From IMG/VR virus record IMGVR_UViG_3300047539_000052, positions 4,310 to 68,309 of that record: a DNA stretch of 64,000 bases. The stretch is one strand, 5' to 3'. Positions 39,614 to 46,939 of the stretch are shown piece after piece. Numbering within the stretch: position 1 is the stretch's first letter; each line of letters opens with the position of its first letter. Both the position numbers and the translations under genes were made by a program. The notes under the pieces are model-generated. The model saw nothing but the letters and a program-made list of their open reading frames with translations. It was not told the DNA's origin and made no database searches. This DNA comes from a virus (Duplodnaviria; Caudoviricetes).

Positions 39614-40579
39614 ATGGAAAGCCCAAAGACACTCCAGCAAGCAATTCAATTCTTCAGCGACTTCGAGAACTGCCGTCACTTCATGATCGCCGTGCGCTGG
39701 CCGGACGGAAAGGTCCGATGTCCTCAGTGTGGCTCCGAAAAAGTCACATACCTGAAGAACGCCCGCGTGTACCGGTGCTATGAACCACACCCACTCCAGA
39801 AGTTCTCCCTCAAGGTCGGTACGGTTTTTGAGGATTCGCCGCTCCCGCTGGAGAAGTGGCTCCCCGCTGTGTGGTTGCTGGTCAATTGCAAGAACGGTAT
39901 CAGCAGTTATGAAATTGGGCGCGACCTCGGCATCACCCAGAAGTCGGCGTGGTTCATGATGCACCGCATCCGCCTCGCAATACAGTCCAAATCCTTCATG
40001 AAAATGGGCGGCCCCGGCTCTGAAGTGGAAGCGGATGAAACCTTCATCGGTGGCAAGGCCCGGAACATGCACATCAGTGAGCGCCAGCGCCGAATCACAG
40101 GCACAGGCGGAAAAGATAAAACCGCCGTCATGGGAATTCTTGAACGTGGCGGAAAGGTCCACGCTACTGTGATTACCAGCCGCAAGAAAAAAGAATTGCA
40201 AGGGGAAGTCCGAAAGCACGTCGAAGCTGGCGCGGCCCTCTATACTGACGCGCTGCTTTCCTACGAAGGACTTGAGGGCGAATACGCGCATAAAGTTGTC
40301 GATCATGCTGTGCAATACGTAGACGGGCGCATCCACACCAACGGCCTCGAAAACTTCTGGAGTCTTCTGAAGCGCGGCATCAATGGCACTTATGTTAGCG
40401 TCGAGCCGTTTCATTTGTTTCGCTACTTGGATGAGCAGACTTTCCGCTACAACAACCGTGCGACAGAAGATAATCCTCTGACTGACGCGGACAGATTCCA
40501 CTTAGCCTTATCGCAGATCGCGGGGAAGCGGTTAACCTTTGCGGAGGTGACTGGCAAGGTGGGAGAAACGGCCTTCTAA
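39614..40579 (+). CDS. IS1595 (ISXO2-like) DDE transposase
   Basis: Zn ribbon WPDG..CPQCGS; EVEADETFIGG; LYTD; HTNGLENFWSLLKR; YLDEQTFRYN. Confidence 0.95.
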   Translation: MESPKTLQQAIQFFSDFENCRHFMIAVRWPDGKVRCPQCGSEKVTYLKNARVYRCYEPHPLQKFSLKVGTVFEDSPLPLEKWLPAVWLLVNCKNGISSYEIGRDLGITQKSAWFMMHRIRLAIQSKSFMKMGGPGSEVEADETFIGGKARNMHISERQRRITGTGGKDKTAVMGILERGGKVHATVITSRKKKELQGEVRKHVEAGAALYTDALLSYEGLEGEYAHKVVDHAVQYVDGRIHTNGLENFWSLLKRGINGTYVSVEPFHLFRYLDEQTFRYNNRATEDNPLTDADRFHLALSQIAGKRLTFAEVTGKVGETAF

Positions 40580-41714: not shown

Positions 41715-41739
41715 TAGTCAGTCATCTATATTAGTACCC
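41715..41739 (-). repeat. right terminal inverted repeat GGGTACTAATATAGATGACTGACTA
   Basis: Matches 39565..39589. Confidence 0.9.
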
Positions 41740-42327
41740 TTTCTTGTCGAATAGCGTCTCCAGGGGCCGCCCCACGAGCCCTTCCGCATCTCGGCTGTTT
41801 ACGATGGCGCACTTTGATTTGAAGCCTCTCCGAACGAACTCCGTAGCCTCTTCGAGCGTCATCTCTCCAAACGATGGGACCACATCAAGGCCCAGCTTCG
41901 CCGCCACATCGCAGACATTTTCGTAATTCAGCCACCATTTGCCGCCGACCAATACGTCGAACACGATGATTTTCTTGAGCGGGGAATAGTCGCCGCCCTT
42001 CTGGATACCAGCACCGTAGCCTTCTCCATAGATCACGGCATCTGCGGACACTCCCTCTTCGTCGGGGAACACGCTCCGCAGTTTGTCTAGGGTGACGTTT
42101 TCGTACAGCCACTTCACGAGGTCAGCGTGAATCTGTGCGTTATCGGTCTTTCCGCCGAAGACAATCTTCCCGTCGCGGTAGATGCAACGAATATTTGTGC
42201 CGTCAACTTTCTCGGTCCAGTGCCACGTTTTCAGAAGGCTGTAGGTGCGATTCTTCAGTTCGCCCACGCGGACCTTGAATGTATTTTCATCGCGCTCGTA
42301 AAGCGTCTCTATTTTGCCGTACTCCAT
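41731..42327 (-). pseudogene. RNA ligase (Rnl2-like nucleotidyltransferase), 3' end interrupted by the IS
   Basis: TEKVDGTN (motif I), GEGYG, FDV, EGLV; missing tail HRLITKLKTKDF* lies beyond the IS at 39517..39564. Confidence 0.8.
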
Positions 42328-42341
42328 CGCCGCCTGCTTTC

Positions 42342-42608
42342 TCAGAACTCTAAATACCCATCCCCATCGCAGTACCAACAGTCCCAGCCTTCTATCGTTA
42401 GGCCACTTCCTAAGCACTTGGGACAGGGGATATCATCGCTAAAATCCTCGTCCTCCAATTCTTCAAAGAGCACGCACTCGCATTCGCAGCCTTGCTCAAC
42501 ACACCGACTGTGACAATTTGCCGCGCACTCTGGACAGACAATCAGACTTCTACCTTTCTTGGCTCCCACCGAGGCTAAGCCAGTTTTAAGTTCTTCGATT
42601 TTGTCCAT
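42342..42608 (-). CDS. Cys-rich hypothetical protein
   Basis: CPEC..., CPKC.GSG...C..CDG. Confidence 0.55.
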   Translation of the reverse strand: MDKIEELKTGLASVGAKKGRSLIVCPECAANCHSRCVEQGCECECVLFEELEDEDFSDDIPCPKCLGSGLTIEGWDCWYCDGDGYLEF

Positions 42609-42693
42609 CACTCACCATCTCCTCTCAGATCGCAGGTAGGTACCTATCCCAAAACTGCCAGTTCGGGCCACTGCTTAGTAGACAATTACCTTT

Positions 42694-42921
42694 TCACATA
42701 TTCTCCGCATACTCCACCGCCCTTTGTCTTCTCCTGACAAAAGTCTGAACATCCTCTAACCTGAACCTTATGGAATGTGCTCCAAAGCTGATGTACTGAA
42801 TCCTTCGAGACTGTCTTAATCTCTTTAAGGTTGCGGCACTGATTCTCAAAAGCTCGCAAACCTCTTTCTGAGTCAATAAGTTAGCTATGGGAGCCTGATC
42901 GAGATGTCTTGAAATTGTCAT
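42694..42921 (-). CDS. excisionase-like HTH DNA-binding protein
   Basis: LLTQKEVCELLRISAATLKRL...IRFRLEDVQTF. Confidence 0.8.
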   Translation of the reverse strand: MTISRHLDQAPIANLLTQKEVCELLRISAATLKRLRQSRRIQYISFGAHSIRFRLEDVQTFVRRRQRAVEYAENM

Positions 42922-44876
42922 TGATTGAGTTCCATGTACGCTCTTATGAACCCTTCAGCTTGCCCGCTTACTAGGGCGTTCCCGTATCCCCTGAGTCGTC
43001 CGACTCTGTTTTTTCCTTTTTGGAGGAGCGGCGAGATGATCGTTGAATCGCCATACCGCATAAGTCCCAGATCAGCGGCAGCCCCATCAGCCAACGCGAG
43101 TGACCCGGATTCAACTGCCCCAACTGGCCGGTACTTTTCGTCGCGGCAGTAGAGCCATTCGGCGCCGGACCAGAAGCCGTTAAGAGTTGATGAACTTCTT
43201 CGTTCAGCGGCTTGCCTCGCGTTTGTTCGCGGTGCTTCTCGTGGTAGTCCTCGGATGCGTCGTTGCTCCGAAAGTCCCGACTTGCAGGTGTGGCCCAGGT
43301 CGCCGTTCGCGTCAGAGAGTTGAATACTCCGCTCGCTCGGGTCGCATTGTTCGCGTTGTCGTCCATTGGCGTCGGCCACGATGCGAGTTTCACAATCCCG
43401 CCCATCAGTTTCTCCTCCTTGCGTTTGCCGCCTCTTGAGGTCTGTCCGCCCTCCATTGCGTTCGGAGTCGGCCAAGCGCTCAGTTCCACTACTTTCCTCG
43501 AGTAGTCCGTATTCCCCGCTTCGTTGTATTCCTCCGTTGCTGGGCTGCCTGCCATCGGAGTCGGCCAAGAGGCTAAACTCGCGTCCTGATTCAGGTCCGC
43601 GCATCCGTGCTTCGTTCCGTGTTTCGCCTTCTGTCCCTTGCCGCGTGCTGTTACGTCGTGCGCTTGCGGAGTCGTCCAAGAGGCCAGTTGTGAAGCTATC
43701 GCCAAGTCTCCCTGTTTCCCGCTCGGGCCTCCGTTCGTCTTCCCTTTGCGATTCTCGTATCCTCGCAATCGACGTGCTTCGTACTGCTCCACTGTCGAGC
43801 CGTCGTGCCCTGCCTTGGGACTGGGCCACCCAATACAGCCTTTGCCTCCTGTGGGGAGCGCCGAAGCCGCAAGCTGGGGTATCAACCGCCCCGACGGTGT
43901 AACCCTGTCCTTCCAAGTCAGACGAAACAAGGTCGAGCCAAGCGAGTCCGTTTGTGAGCGAATCTTCTCCGCTATCCTCGTCGAGAAGTTCTCCGATTGC
44001 TTCCGCCTCGTCACCTGAATTGCGGCCGCAATCTTGATAATCTTGTTCGGCCCCCAGAGGTTCGCCATCACGTTCACGCAATAGAGCACGATCCGCACAT
44101 TCTCCCGCGCATAGCCTTTGGTTGAGTCGATTCGGTCGAGTGAGGGGCTGTCCCAGGTCTTGCCGCCATCGAGATTCAGCGGTAAGCCCGTCACCTGACA
44201 CACGCCCGCATCGATCACAGACTGAATCTCCTCCTCGTACTGATCTAGGGAGTACTCCAATCCCTTCAATGAGGCTCTGTGTTTGGCCAAAGTCAAAAGT
44301 ATCTTGGCTCGGTGGCTCCGGCGGTAGGCCACAAATGTCGCAGAAGTCTTCGTCTTCGATCCCGGCTTCTCCCTCCAGGCCGAAGACCTCGCCTTGTAGC
44401 ATTCTTTGCATTTCGTCCGGTAGCCGCCCCCAATCGATGGCTGATTCTTGTAGAAGTCGGACAAGAGTTTCACGGTGCCACAGCCGGCGCACATCTTCCG
44501 GTCGTCCGCTTCCGCTGGCAACTTGCTCTCCGAAGACAATTCTGGGGCGACATTCGGCAATAAGCCGATTAAACTCTGGCCATAGGTGTCGCTCATCGGA
44601 ACCTCCTTCGCGCTTTCCGGAAACAGAGAACGGTTGGCACGGGCACGATCCCGTCCAGACGCGCTGCGAATCTTCCCATCCTGCACATCTGAGCGCATAG
44701 CTCCAGACTCCAATTCCGGCGAAGAAGTGGCACTGGGTAAAACCTCGCAAATCTTCGGCTCGGACTTGCTGAATATCTCTTCCATCAATTTCCCCCGGTG
44801 CTATGACTTTGGCGGCCATCAAATGTTTCAGCCACTCCACGTTGAACTTGTCGTGTTCGTTGTAGTAGGCAGTCAC
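42918..44876 (-). CDS. C5-cytosine DNA methyltransferase, alpha-type frame
   Basis: GTG 44876 overlapping upstream TGA; FFAGIG (I), GSCPCQPFS (IV), GEQV (VI), PHRRQRLYWVA (VIII), GRLRGYGNA (X). Confidence 0.9.
   Translation of the reverse strand: MTAYYNEHDKFNVEWLKHLMAAKVIAPGEIDGRDIQQVRAEDLRGFTQCHFFAGIGVWSYALRCAGWEDSQRVWTGSCPCQPFSVSGKREGGSDERHLWPEFNRLIAECRPRIVFGEQVASGSGRPEDVRRLWHRETLVRLLQESAIDWGRLPDEMQRMLQGEVFGLEGEAGIEDEDFCDICGLPPEPPSQDTFDFGQTQSLIEGIGVLPRSVRGGDSVCDRCGRVSGDGLTAESRWRQDLGQPLTRPNRLNQRLCAGECADRALLRERDGEPLGAEQDYQDCGRNSGDEAEAIGELLDEDSGEDSLTNGLAWLDLVSSDLEGQGYTVGAVDTPACGFGAPHRRQRLYWVAQSQGRARRLDSGAVRSTSIARIRESQREDERRPERETGRLGDSFTTGLLDDSASARRNSTRQGTEGETRNEARMRGPESGREFSLLADSDGRQPSNGGIQRSGEYGLLEESSGTERLADSERNGGRTDLKRRQTQGGETDGRDCETRIVADANGRQREQCDPSERSIQLSDANGDLGHTCKSGLSEQRRIRGLPREAPRTNARQAAERRSSSTLNGFWSGAEWLYCRDEKYRPVGAVESGSLALADGAAADLGLMRYGDSTIISPLLQKGKNRVGRLRGYGNALVSGQAEGFIRAYMELNQ
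42971..44785 (-). CDS. overlapping alternative-frame ORF (MTase beta-type subunit) containing an HNH-like nuclease domain
   Basis: G-rich SD before ATG 44785; CAGC..CKEC, CQVTG, SLDRIDSTKGY..NVR...N; W(P/T)TP repeats; LNPGHSRWLMGLP (motif IX-like). Confidence 0.8.
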   Translation of the reverse strand: MEEIFSKSEPKICEVLPSATSSPELESGAMRSDVQDGKIRSASGRDRARANRSLFPESAKEVPMSDTYGQSLIGLLPNVAPELSSESKLPAEADDRKMCAGCGTVKLLSDFYKNQPSIGGGYRTKCKECYKARSSAWREKPGSKTKTSATFVAYRRSHRAKILLTLAKHRASLKGLEYSLDQYEEEIQSVIDAGVCQVTGLPLNLDGGKTWDSPSLDRIDSTKGYARENVRIVLYCVNVMANLWGPNKIIKIAAAIQVTRRKQSENFSTRIAEKIRSQTDSLGSTLFRLTWKDRVTPSGRLIPQLAASALPTGGKGCIGWPSPKAGHDGSTVEQYEARRLRGYENRKGKTNGGPSGKQGDLAIASQLASWTTPQAHDVTARGKGQKAKHGTKHGCADLNQDASLASWPTPMAGSPATEEYNEAGNTDYSRKVVELSAWPTPNAMEGGQTSRGGKRKEEKLMGGIVKLASWPTPMDDNANNATRASGVFNSLTRTATWATPASRDFRSNDASEDYHEKHREQTRGKPLNEEVHQLLTASGPAPNGSTAATKSTGQLGQLNPGHSRWLMGLPLIWDLCGMAIQRSSRRSSKKEKTESDDSGDTGTP

Positions 44877-45322
44877 GCAATCCTTTTCCGCACGGGCTCG
44901 GGCGGCGCGTTTCTCCAAGCCCAGGAGACTGACTCCGATTCTTTGCGAAGCGCCTCAACTGAGGGAGCATCGATGATCGAGAAATTCACGATACTTTCTG
45001 CTGGCGAGTCCCTTGTTAGAATGGCAAACGCCTTGTGGAAAGCTGCGCGAAATTCCTCTTCGGTCATGTCGCCTTTGCGGTCGTTGCAGGTGATACAGGC
45101 GGGCACAATATTGTCGATGGTATCGGCGCCGCCCCGCGACCGTGGCGTCTTATGCTCCTTGGTCGCGTCCAGCAAAGTTAGTGGCGCATAGCAGTAGTAG
45201 CAGCGCATTCCGCACTTGAAAAACTTTCCTTCCCACTGGCGCTCGGTGTGTGTACGCAACGTGCAAAACCTCCAACTTTCTGTTAATTCCTGTTGATAAA
45301 GCCCTTTAAGAAATTTCCACAT
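44873..45322 (-). CDS. HNH endonuclease
   Basis: CYYC...TKEHKTPRSRGG.D.IDNIVPACITCNDRKG. Confidence 0.9.
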   Translation of the reverse strand: MWKFLKGLYQQELTESWRFCTLRTHTERQWEGKFFKCGMRCYYCYAPLTLLDATKEHKTPRSRGGADTIDNIVPACITCNDRKGDMTEEEFRAAFHKAFAILTRDSPAESIVNFSIIDAPSVEALRKESESVSWAWRNAPPEPVRKRIA

Positions 45323-45729
45323 GATGAGATTTCCTTGTGCAAACTTCGGATATTTCAAACCAGGGCGGAAGTCTCTTTTAGCAAACCCTGTTCCGCCCCA
45401 GTTTCCTCGTAGTCAGCTTTTCCTTGTTGTTCCGTTCTACTCAACACGGGATATGAAACAGATTTCCCGCGAAGACCGTTGTCATTCAATCCACTTCTTA
45501 GCTCTTTGTATCTAAACGTTTGTGCTCCGAACTTTGGGGCTTCCGGGTCCGCTACCCACCGGCACGCTTGCTGTTGGTCGGTTTCAACCCTTTGCATTTA
45601 CACGCAGCCCTACGCAAACACTCTCCCGCATCATTGTGATAGCCTTCGTGATCGCCGCAAGCGCACATCCGAGGACCGCCTTCGTAACACCAATGCGGCA
45701 CATACGGAGAGTCGTCGCTCGGCCCCGGA

Positions 45730-46180: not shown

Positions 46181-46939
46181 CTACTCATAAGCCGCAGCTT
46201 CTTCTCTAGTTAGAAAGAAGTGAATCCCTCCGCCGCACTCCGTCCAACGATCTTCATTCCATGTGTCGCAACGCACGATCTGACCGACTCGGTATTCAAT
46301 GTTTCCGTTGTATTGGCTGATTCCAACTTCTGCACCGATTACTTCCAGAACTTTGACGTGGGAGGCGCGGCACTTGCGCCCGGTAGCATGGCTGCGTTTT
46401 GCCGTGTCACCCACCACTAGCTTGACCAGAACTCCATTGCGGCATTTCTTCCAGCCCCAGAGTGGGCCATCAATGGGAAGAATGGCGATACGCGCTAAAA
46501 CCAGAGCCGCATCCTTGAGGTCTTTCAGGTCCGCCCCCCTCAGGTCCGCCCCGCTCAGGTGCGCCCCGCTCAGGTACGCCCTGCTCAGGTCCGCCCCGCT
46601 CAGGTTCGCCCCGCTCAGGTTCGCCCCGCTCAGGTCCGCCCCGCTCAGGTGCGCCCTGCTCAGGTCCGCCCTGCTCAGGTACGCCCTGCTCAGGTCCGCC
46701 CCGCTCAGGTTCGCCCCGCTCAGGTCCGCCCCGCTCAGGTACGCCCCGCTCAGGTCCGCCCCGCTCAGGTTCGCCCCGCTCAGGTTCGCCCCGCTCAGGT
46801 CCGCCCCGCTCAGGTCCGCCCCGCTCAGGTTCGCCCCGCTCAGGTACGCCCCGCTCAGGTGCGCCTTTTTGCCGCCTTCTCGATTGCCTAGCCATGCGGC
46901 ATGGAGTTCTAGGACGTGCTTGATTTCTTCTGGAGTCAT
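46181..46939 (-). CDS. pentapeptide-repeat protein with C-terminal domain (DUF5758-like)
   Basis: ~22 A(N/D/Y/H)LS(G/R) repeats; GWKK...KCRAS..KVLE...GGGIHFF. Confidence 0.9.
46531..46865. repeat. tandem 15-nt repeat (CCGCTCAGGTNCGCC), ~22 units
   Basis: Directly visible; encodes the pentapeptides. Confidence 0.95.

Follow-up and report, generated by a model that had tools for sequence, protein, structure and literature searches.

A nuclease insert open in both frames of a predicted two-chain C5 DNA methyltransferase gene from a phage genome

RESULTS

Two overlapping frames share the motifs of a C5 methyltransferase

A 64,000-nucleotide (nt) stretch of viral DNA, called the window here, forms part of the 68-kb IMG/VR virus record IMGVR_UViG_3300047539_000052. 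On its minus strand, two long open reading frames (ORFs) overlap almost entirely. Our analyses indicate that this locus is probably a phage C5 DNA methyltransferase gene encoding two chains, alpha and beta, in different frames, and that it was later invaded by a mobile nuclease gene. This reading builds on the two open frames and their depletion of stop codons, on constraint that differs from segment to segment, on the bounds of the insert, on the fold and family of the nuclease, and on its patchy distribution.

As the original prediction proposed, both long frames lie on the same strand. Frame A runs from 44918 to 42918 (666 amino acids [aa] if initiated at TTG) and frame B, which is A+1, from 44788 to 42971 (605 aa if from TTG). 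Because homologs begin with M/V-x-AYYNE, we set the start of alpha at GTG 44876, a homolog-supported choice that places AAGGA 4 nt 5′ of the start codon. The resulting ORF (42918..44876, stop codon at 42918-42920) encodes the predicted catalytic chain of 652 aa. The beta ORF (42971..44785) most likely starts at ATG 44785 and ends with TAG at 42971-42973, giving 604 aa. A GGGGGA element at 44791..44796, located 5 nt 5′ of that ATG within the P-G-E codons of alpha, resembles a Shine-Dalgarno (SD) sequence and, judging from its sequence and position, may serve beta as such. The beta ATG is formed by alpha (V/I)-D-(E/G) codons, and the SD-like purines come from the preceding G-E codons. In nearly all loci of the family, the first beta-frame ATG is found 73-115 nt past the alpha AYYNE codon, with a mode of 85 nt, which is also the distance in the window. 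A scan of the coding strand for promoters and terminators returned nothing above shuffled sequences.

All five C5 methyltransferase motifs anticipated for one frame are present in alpha: I (FFAGIG, 44709-44726), IV (PCQ, 44634-44642), VI (GEQV, 44520-44531), VIII (RRQR, 43839-43850), and X (GNA, 42975-42983), all on the minus strand. They are invariant or nearly so among 51 homologs. Pfam DNA_methylase (PF00145) matched frame A only, with 50.4 bits (cut-off 22; E value, 2.9e-13). The 327 positions of the PHROG family phrog_363, "DNA methyltransferase," covered residues 14-665 of frame A (E, 4e-68) with two big gaps, and alpha therefore bears two large extra segments.

Beta comprises, in order, a leader, a Zn-ribbon, a nuclease, a core, WPTP repeats, a motif IX-like segment, and a tail. 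The core, from GSTLF-LTWK-VTPSGR to the first WPSP (43796..43996, minus strand; beta 264-330), overlaps alpha motifs VII-VIII. It is followed by six W-x-T/S-P repeats (43286..43828), presumed to form the DNA-recognition region, whose alpha reading is a low-complexity, low-confidence loop. The motif IX-like segment LNPGHSRWLMGLP (43076..43114; beta 558-570) overlaps a conserved C-terminal element of alpha. The SD-like element, the repeats, and this segment had all been noted from the sequence beforehand, and each was recovered here. Because the motif IX-like segment lies in beta, in the +1 frame, and not in the alpha chain, the enzyme is of the split type. PHROG matches to beta were "endonuclease VII" over residues 89-241 and methyltransferase families over 275-436, and Pfam searches with beta and with its nuclease domain found no family. 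Databases hold more than 500 beta homologs of 330-760 aa, which are annotated as "hypothetical" and have no Pfam domain.

The two-frame layout recurs widely. Approximately 100 diverged viral loci were fetched with beta or with the alpha N terminus; a scan of genome contigs gave three loci only, and the distribution data describe viral contigs. Throughout these loci, alpha is open from motif I to motif X, and its +1 frame contains the beta core and the motif IX-like segment; only about five of them look broken. Among the 80 viral loci closest to the window in the alpha N terminus (63-70% identity to the query), the beta core was in the +1 frame in all 80; nearly all also had motif IX in that frame and an open alpha with motif X. 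The N- and C-terminal motifs of alpha remain in one frame despite inserts of variable size. As a separate observation, locus L126 (3001-4008) has no alpha motif X, and its motif IX-like match falls in f0, the alpha frame, instead of the +1 frame, which could stem from a natural fusion of the frames, from a frameshift mutation, or from an error in sequencing.

A model of the complex between alpha and residues 268-604 of beta scored 0.84, compared with 0.01 for the best of three controls. Of 80 solved complexes, 58 reached the mark used for this score, as did 2 of 110 mismatched pairs; these counts are approximate since we used our own alignments. Between runs, at least 41% of the contacts agreed, and the predicted local distance difference test (pLDDT) score of the partner was at least 39. 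In the model, beta 563-569 contacts motif X (alpha 631-637) and motif VIII (alpha 340-342) and occupies the place of motif IX in single-chain enzymes. The model may have passed in part because of likeness to solved single-chain C5 methyltransferases. Together with the approximately 100 open loci and the constraint on each frame described below, this result supports the proposal that alpha and beta form a dual-coding methyltransferase in the manner of M.EcoHK31I, as predicted from sequence and modeling.

Openness and constraint of the two frames

The open second frame is not due to chance. With the beta protein fixed and its synonymous codons shuffled, 22.1 stops were expected in the overlapping alpha frame; there are none, and none of 2,000 shuffles matched this. 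The third frame contained about 29-31 stops, at expectation (24.8 expected for 29), and the reciprocal shuffle of alpha against beta gave the same picture. Thus, the suspicion that an open alpha frame might be expected at this G+C content was answered by a clear depletion of stop codons.

As the nearest inserted relative shares only 37-45% aa identity, we used family-wide diversity at codon positions 1/2/3 of the named frame in place of dN/dS ratios. Over alpha motifs I-VI, diversity was 0.22/0.19/0.55 in the alpha frame and 0.20/0.53/0.21 in the beta leader, which is thus a passenger. Alpha-type constraint was also found over motif X (0.32/0.29/0.55). Over the insert, it is the alpha frame that is the passenger, with values of 0.59/0.48/0.41 against 0.46/0.40/0.59 in the beta frame of the nuclease. 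Where alpha motifs VII-VIII overlap the beta core, and where alpha 561-600 overlaps beta motif IX, all three positions showed low diversity, and both frames are constrained. A single polypeptide made by programmed frameshifts was considered and excluded because this dual constraint falls on the same nucleotides; four shifts would be needed.

These data bear on the possibility that only one gene is real, the other ORF being a compositional accident, an assembly frameshift artifact, or the remnant of a broken single-chain methyltransferase. The G+C content of the region, 55-59%, does lengthen chance ORFs, and the beta-specific parts are of low complexity in the alpha frame. However, the shuffles never opened the alpha frame while the third frame was closed many times over, each frame shows its own coding signature in different segments, the +1 layout is found in independent, diverged loci, and the terminal motifs of alpha keep one frame across variable inserts. 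We therefore regard a single gene as extremely unlikely. An assembly artifact in particular was ruled out by the recurrence of the layout in approximately 100 independent contigs.

A nuclease insert in phase with both frames

Alignment to 36 uninserted alpha homologs placed an insert of 558 nt at 43956..44513 (minus strand), between GEQVAS-G and TN-GLAWLD, close to the approximately 555 nt at about 43955-44510 originally proposed; in the beta alignment, its edges are uncertain by approximately 40 nt. In the minimal homolog L031, GEQVASKDGLAWLD is uninterrupted. The insert corresponds to alpha 122-307 and to approximately beta 78-263, where it encodes the Zn-ribbon and the nuclease. It occupies the loop that directly follows alpha motif VI, a site that corresponds in beta to the border between its unconstrained leader and its core. 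As proposed, it has no stop in the alpha frame; 5.5 were expected, and none of 1,000 shuffles of the insert was free of them. In approximately 24 distinct inserted loci (31-42% identity in beta), alpha is likewise stop-free throughout. Inserts that lack the Zn-ribbon measure approximately 420 nt and those that have it approximately 525-570 nt, yet all lengths are multiples of three, and both frames are kept. The alpha reading of the insert matched no Pfam family and was mostly disordered in the predicted structure, with a pLDDT of 25-63 compared with 83-97 for the alpha core.

In the beta frame, the insert encodes a Zn-ribbon (CAGC, beta 99-102, and CKEC, beta 126-129; 44399..44491, minus strand), which aligns with the N-terminal CxxC..CxxC of PacI, and a PacI-type His-Me-finger nuclease core (44000..44338, minus strand; beta 150-262). 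The core contains the motif SLDRIDSTKGY..N..N. Across 56 homologs, C196, S215, D217, Y225, N229, and N238 are invariant and R218 is nearly so. A profile of these homologs matched PacI (PDB 3ldy) with an E value of 4.3e-5, Zn-ribbon included, and aligned the nuclease residues with the VDR..GY..N..N of PacI. The AlphaFold (AF2) model of the nuclease had a pLDDT of 93. Foldseek found no match at an E value of ≤0.001; its best match was again PacI 3ldy (probability, 0.99; E, 3.6e-3), and Hpy99I and the Gme HNH nickase came next. We accepted the PacI assignment despite the Foldseek E value because the independent sequence-profile match agrees with it.

Fold and profile thus uphold the proposed Zn-finger/His-Me nuclease in the beta frame. 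The description "HNH-like" needs refining, in that the nuclease is not a canonical H-N-H enzyme: it has D-R where canonical enzymes have D-H, and the catalytic His is absent. According to two reviews, from which we took the active-site residues of PacI, PacI-type His-Me fingers have no catalytic His; a Tyr is their general base, and Asp and Asn serve as metal ligands (PMC5714182, PMC4081073). Because its invariant D, Y, and N fit this pattern, the domain looks catalytically competent.

Removal of the insert by splicing, as a group I or II intron with a homing-endonuclease ORF or as an intein, would make the open alpha frame incidental. Introns and inteins are the classic carriers of homing endonucleases, and in Escherichia phage KarlSchell_Bas89 (L166, PQ850613.1, 1007-3631) a homolog of the nuclease, Bas89_0048, lies within a DNA polymerase I coding sequence annotated as two joined pieces. 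Nevertheless, Rfam detected no family, introns included, at an E value of ≤1 over 42600-45400. No Hint or other Pfam domain was found in the alpha reading, and the residue after the insert is Gly instead of the Cys, Ser, or Thr of an intein junction. Splicing would also leave unexplained that the insert lengths are multiples of three, that alpha is open in every inserted locus, and that the nuclease ORF continues into the beta core. We thus consider splicing very unlikely; the predicted absence of any need for it accords with these searches and with the disordered loop.

Distribution and mobility of the insert

Of the 80 closest alpha relatives, 77 lack the insert and three have it; wherever it occurs, it is just before the beta core. 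In a tree of the alpha core, inserted loci were scattered and required 12 state changes, compared with a mean of 16.5 in shuffled data, and a single clade of inserted loci was rejected by the approximately unbiased (AU) test (p-AU, 0.0076). The closely related phages of loci L008 (inserted) and L124 (uninserted) are 0.85-0.97 identical in the outer flanks, over 1.5 kb on each side. Within the gene, identity is 0.9-0.98 distally and falls to 0.6-0.8 in the approximately 120 nt on either side of the insert. This pattern is expected from co-conversion, in which the nuclease gene is copied in with flanking sequences of the donor. The same pair (L008:2410-4017 and L124:2498-3676) has a second diverged block of approximately 240 nt in the WPTP repeats, with an identity of 0.38-0.68 compared with approximately 0.95 around it, which suggests an independent recombination event that swapped the presumed recognition module.

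The nuclease also exists outside the fusion. In L031 and L024, it is encoded by a gene of its own immediately downstream of the methylase, and in L024 and L026 it forms a self-contained nested ORF, complete with start and stop codons. More than 50 viral contigs carry free-standing nuclease ORFs of 139-305 aa that have no methylase near them. Homologs in isolate phages are labeled HNH endonuclease, endonuclease VII, or restriction endonuclease, and some Ralstonia podophages have two to three copies. The nuclease-beta fusion was found in none of 50,697 GenBank phage records, where matches start only past the nuclease; in 136 such records, the matching region is annotated just as methylase or hypothetical. 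The nuclease-bearing form was found only in viral contigs from metagenomes.

A second, unrelated insertion was observed in some relatives, namely, a canonical HNH ORF that lies in the +1 frame, past the end of beta but ahead of alpha motif X (L014:3929-4360, L017:1639-2034, and L024:3779-4222; Pfam HNH in L014, 24.9 bits). Alpha is open through it, with chains of 704-736 aa.

Several points weigh against the invasion of a two-frame gene by a mobile nuclease. Its support is wholly comparative or predicted. The pLDDT of the partner in the complex model was low, at 40-45, and over the beta leader of the window only 0.8 stops were expected, so the stop test is uninformative there. The tree of the alpha core has poor resolution and is built on a short alignment of 211 columns, and recombination within the gene is evident; for these reasons, many gains are inseparable from recombination or loss, and well-supported branches force only at least two changes. 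L008 and L124 are the sole close pair of inserted and uninserted loci with the co-conversion-like pattern, and the nearest alpha relatives of the window (67% aa identity) are too distant to reveal it. Finally, the nuclease frame of the window and of most inserted loci continues without a stop into the beta core as an in-frame fusion, and the nuclease has been under purifying selection over deep divergence; this fits a domesticated, integrated domain as well as a selfish one.

Domestication would make the locus a nuclease-methylase unit in which the PacI-like domain, mounted on the DNA-recognition subunit, cuts unmethylated copies of the site protected by the alpha/beta enzyme, or neighboring DNA, i.e., a restriction-modification-like or host-DNA-degrading module within a single 2-kb two-frame gene. 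In addition to the fusion, the invariance of the catalytic-type residues speaks for this, as do the facts that PacI is a restriction enzyme and that the nuclease gene adjoins the methylase when outside it in L031 and L024. Presence in only 3 of the 80 closest relatives, scattered on the tree, argues against it, as do the separate ORFs of L024 and L026, the co-conversion-like flanks of the close pair, and homologs that are mostly free-standing without a methylase or reside in an annotated split polymerase gene. The HNH ORFs at another site in L014, L017, and L024 point instead to a general landing pad for selfish nucleases. A domesticated unit is thus rather unlikely, and a homing nuclease tolerated in two frames, the other possibility raised initially, is better backed than a restriction-modification unit by the patchy spread, the flanks, the homologs that are free-standing or annotated within an intron, and the absence of intron and intein signatures from the searches made.

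Neighboring genes

Directly upstream of alpha on the minus strand, an ORF of 161 aa encodes an HNH endonuclease (44873-45358; Pfam HNH_5 and HNH). Its TGA overlaps the GTG of alpha as GTGA, a sequence arrangement that suggests translational coupling. Directly downstream of the methylase gene is a gene for a small HTH_17 excisionase-like protein (42694-42921, minus strand) and, farther downstream, one for an RNA ligase family protein (41731-42417, minus strand; Pfam RNA_ligase; E, 3.5e-16). A pentapeptide-repeat protein of 252 aa with repeats of the A-[ND]-L-S-G type is encoded at 46181-46939 (minus strand). The DNA of these repeats is open in several frames on both strands, which looks like a low-complexity artifact and not like overlapping genes. 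On the plus strand, an ORF of 321 aa (39614-40579) has a Cys-rich N-terminal segment and is overlapped by an antisense ORF of 297 aa; we take it to resemble a transposase of the IS1595/ISXO2 type.

DISCUSSION

We infer translation of both chains, activity of the heterodimer, activity of the nuclease on a target, and a homing mechanism, which would fit together as follows. Alpha would supply the S-adenosylmethionine (AdoMet)/catalytic fold with motifs I-VIII and X. Beta would be translated in the +1 frame from its own SD sequence and ATG approximately 90 nt downstream, and it would provide the core, the WPTP repeats as the likely target recognition region, and, to complete the alpha fold, the motif IX-like segment. 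The invader would have been a phage nuclease gene of the free-standing type, encoding a PacI-family His-Me finger with an N-terminal Zn-ribbon. Its 558 nt are in phase with alpha and beta alike. Ribosomes translating the beta frame would make the nuclease as an N-terminal domain on the beta core, so that it would borrow the translation signals of beta. Ribosomes in the alpha frame would read the same nucleotides as a stop-free, largely disordered loop of 186 residues, with RNA or protein splicing being unnecessary, and alpha-frame stops would have been purged by selection. Spread among related methylase genes would have occurred by homing-like cleavage and recombination, with flanks dragged along.

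The host gene resembles M.EcoHK31I of E. coli HK31 (recognition sequence YGGCCR; Lee, Kam, and Shaw 1995 as described in PMC2836561) in its layout and motif split. In that enzyme, beta is encoded in another frame within the alpha gene; alpha has motifs I-VIII, motif X, and the target recognition domain, beta has motif IX, and both chains are required for activity (PMC2836561). The locus in the window has the same division, with I-VIII and X in alpha and IX in beta. However, M.EcoHK31I has a small nested beta, whereas beta of the window is nearly as long as alpha and overlaps it over 1.8 kb. It is also beta, and not alpha, that bears the repeat region resembling a target recognition module in the window, and this beta bears a nuclease as well.

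The insert, for its part, resembles the ShiLan domain and Pacc40 gp60, where an HNH endonuclease gene lies, out of frame, in a stop-free, non-splicing insertion in DNA methylases of actinophages (Arsenault, Gosselin, and Gogarten 2025, PMC11855218). In both cases, a nuclease ORF is found in an alternative frame inside an insertion in a phage methylase, the host frame is stop-free and forms a poorly structured loop, and intron and intein signatures are absent. Both distributions are disjunct (here, 3 of 80 relatives and an AU p value of 0.0076, from a tree confounded by recombination), and relatives have a neighboring free-standing nuclease gene (Tiff81 and Sashimi there, L031 and L024 here). 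The ShiLan HNH has its own GTG and TAA, whereas the nuclease of the window runs into the beta core without a stop, being self-contained only in L024 and L026. It is in phase with and fused to a pre-existing overlapping gene, beta, which supplies the start site; how the ShiLan nuclease is translated was posed as an open question (PMC11855218). Unlike the ShiLan host gene as published, that of the window is itself a two-frame alpha/beta gene, and its nuclease is of the PacI type, with Tyr replacing His, and not a canonical HNH. The alpha N terminus matches 54 Mycobacterium phage records, and the ShiLan methylase, for which the papers give no class, may belong to the alpha family.

PacI itself (PDB 3ldy/3m7k) belongs to His-Me finger group 20, a predominantly viral group (Jablonska et al. 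2017, PMC5714182), and shares with the window nuclease a Zn-ribbon (CxxC..CxxC) placed N-terminal to a beta-beta-alpha-metal core, the D-R..G-Y..N..N pattern, and the absence of the catalytic His. In contrast to PacI, to which it is approximately 14% identical in the structural alignment, the window nuclease has an extra helical segment between ribbon and core, and it is a domain of a methyltransferase subunit instead of a stand-alone homodimeric restriction enzyme. Phage homing endonucleases such as that of Bas89 are homologous to it (approximately 30% identity over 90% of the domain) and are likewise located in or beside conserved genes of DNA metabolism, with several copies in some podophages. 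These endonucleases have ORFs of their own, either intergenic or within introns, whereas the host frame reads through the window nuclease, which is fused to the overlapping gene. The case therefore combines two known kinds of arrangement, an EcoHK31I-type two-frame methyltransferase and a ShiLan-type out-of-frame nuclease insertion. Its novel feature is a nuclease insert that is in phase with, and fused to, the second subunit.

A further idea, which we regard as speculative and on balance improbable, is that nuclease-beta uses the recognition subunit of the methyltransferase to aim the PacI-type nuclease, making the locus a mobile restriction-modification-like system in one 2-kb two-frame stretch. 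If so, alpha and beta would methylate and nuclease-beta would cut unmethylated targets, a sharing of the specificity subunit reminiscent of Type I systems, achieved here by overprinting. A functional fusion would be a very compact nuclease-methylase module and a possible tool. A homing nuclease could then be captured merely by landing in phase with an overlapping gene.

The invasion of a two-frame methyltransferase gene by a mobile nuclease would place three layers of information on the same DNA, i.e., a catalytic subunit, a recognition subunit, and a mobile nuclease, where annotation pipelines call one of the two ORFs only. It would single out the loop after motif VI, at the point where the beta leader meets the beta core, as the one place in the gene at which an additional 186 residues are tolerated by both proteins. 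It would also offer a concrete answer to the translation question raised by ShiLan-type insertions, in that the hidden nuclease may land in phase with a gene that already has a start site.

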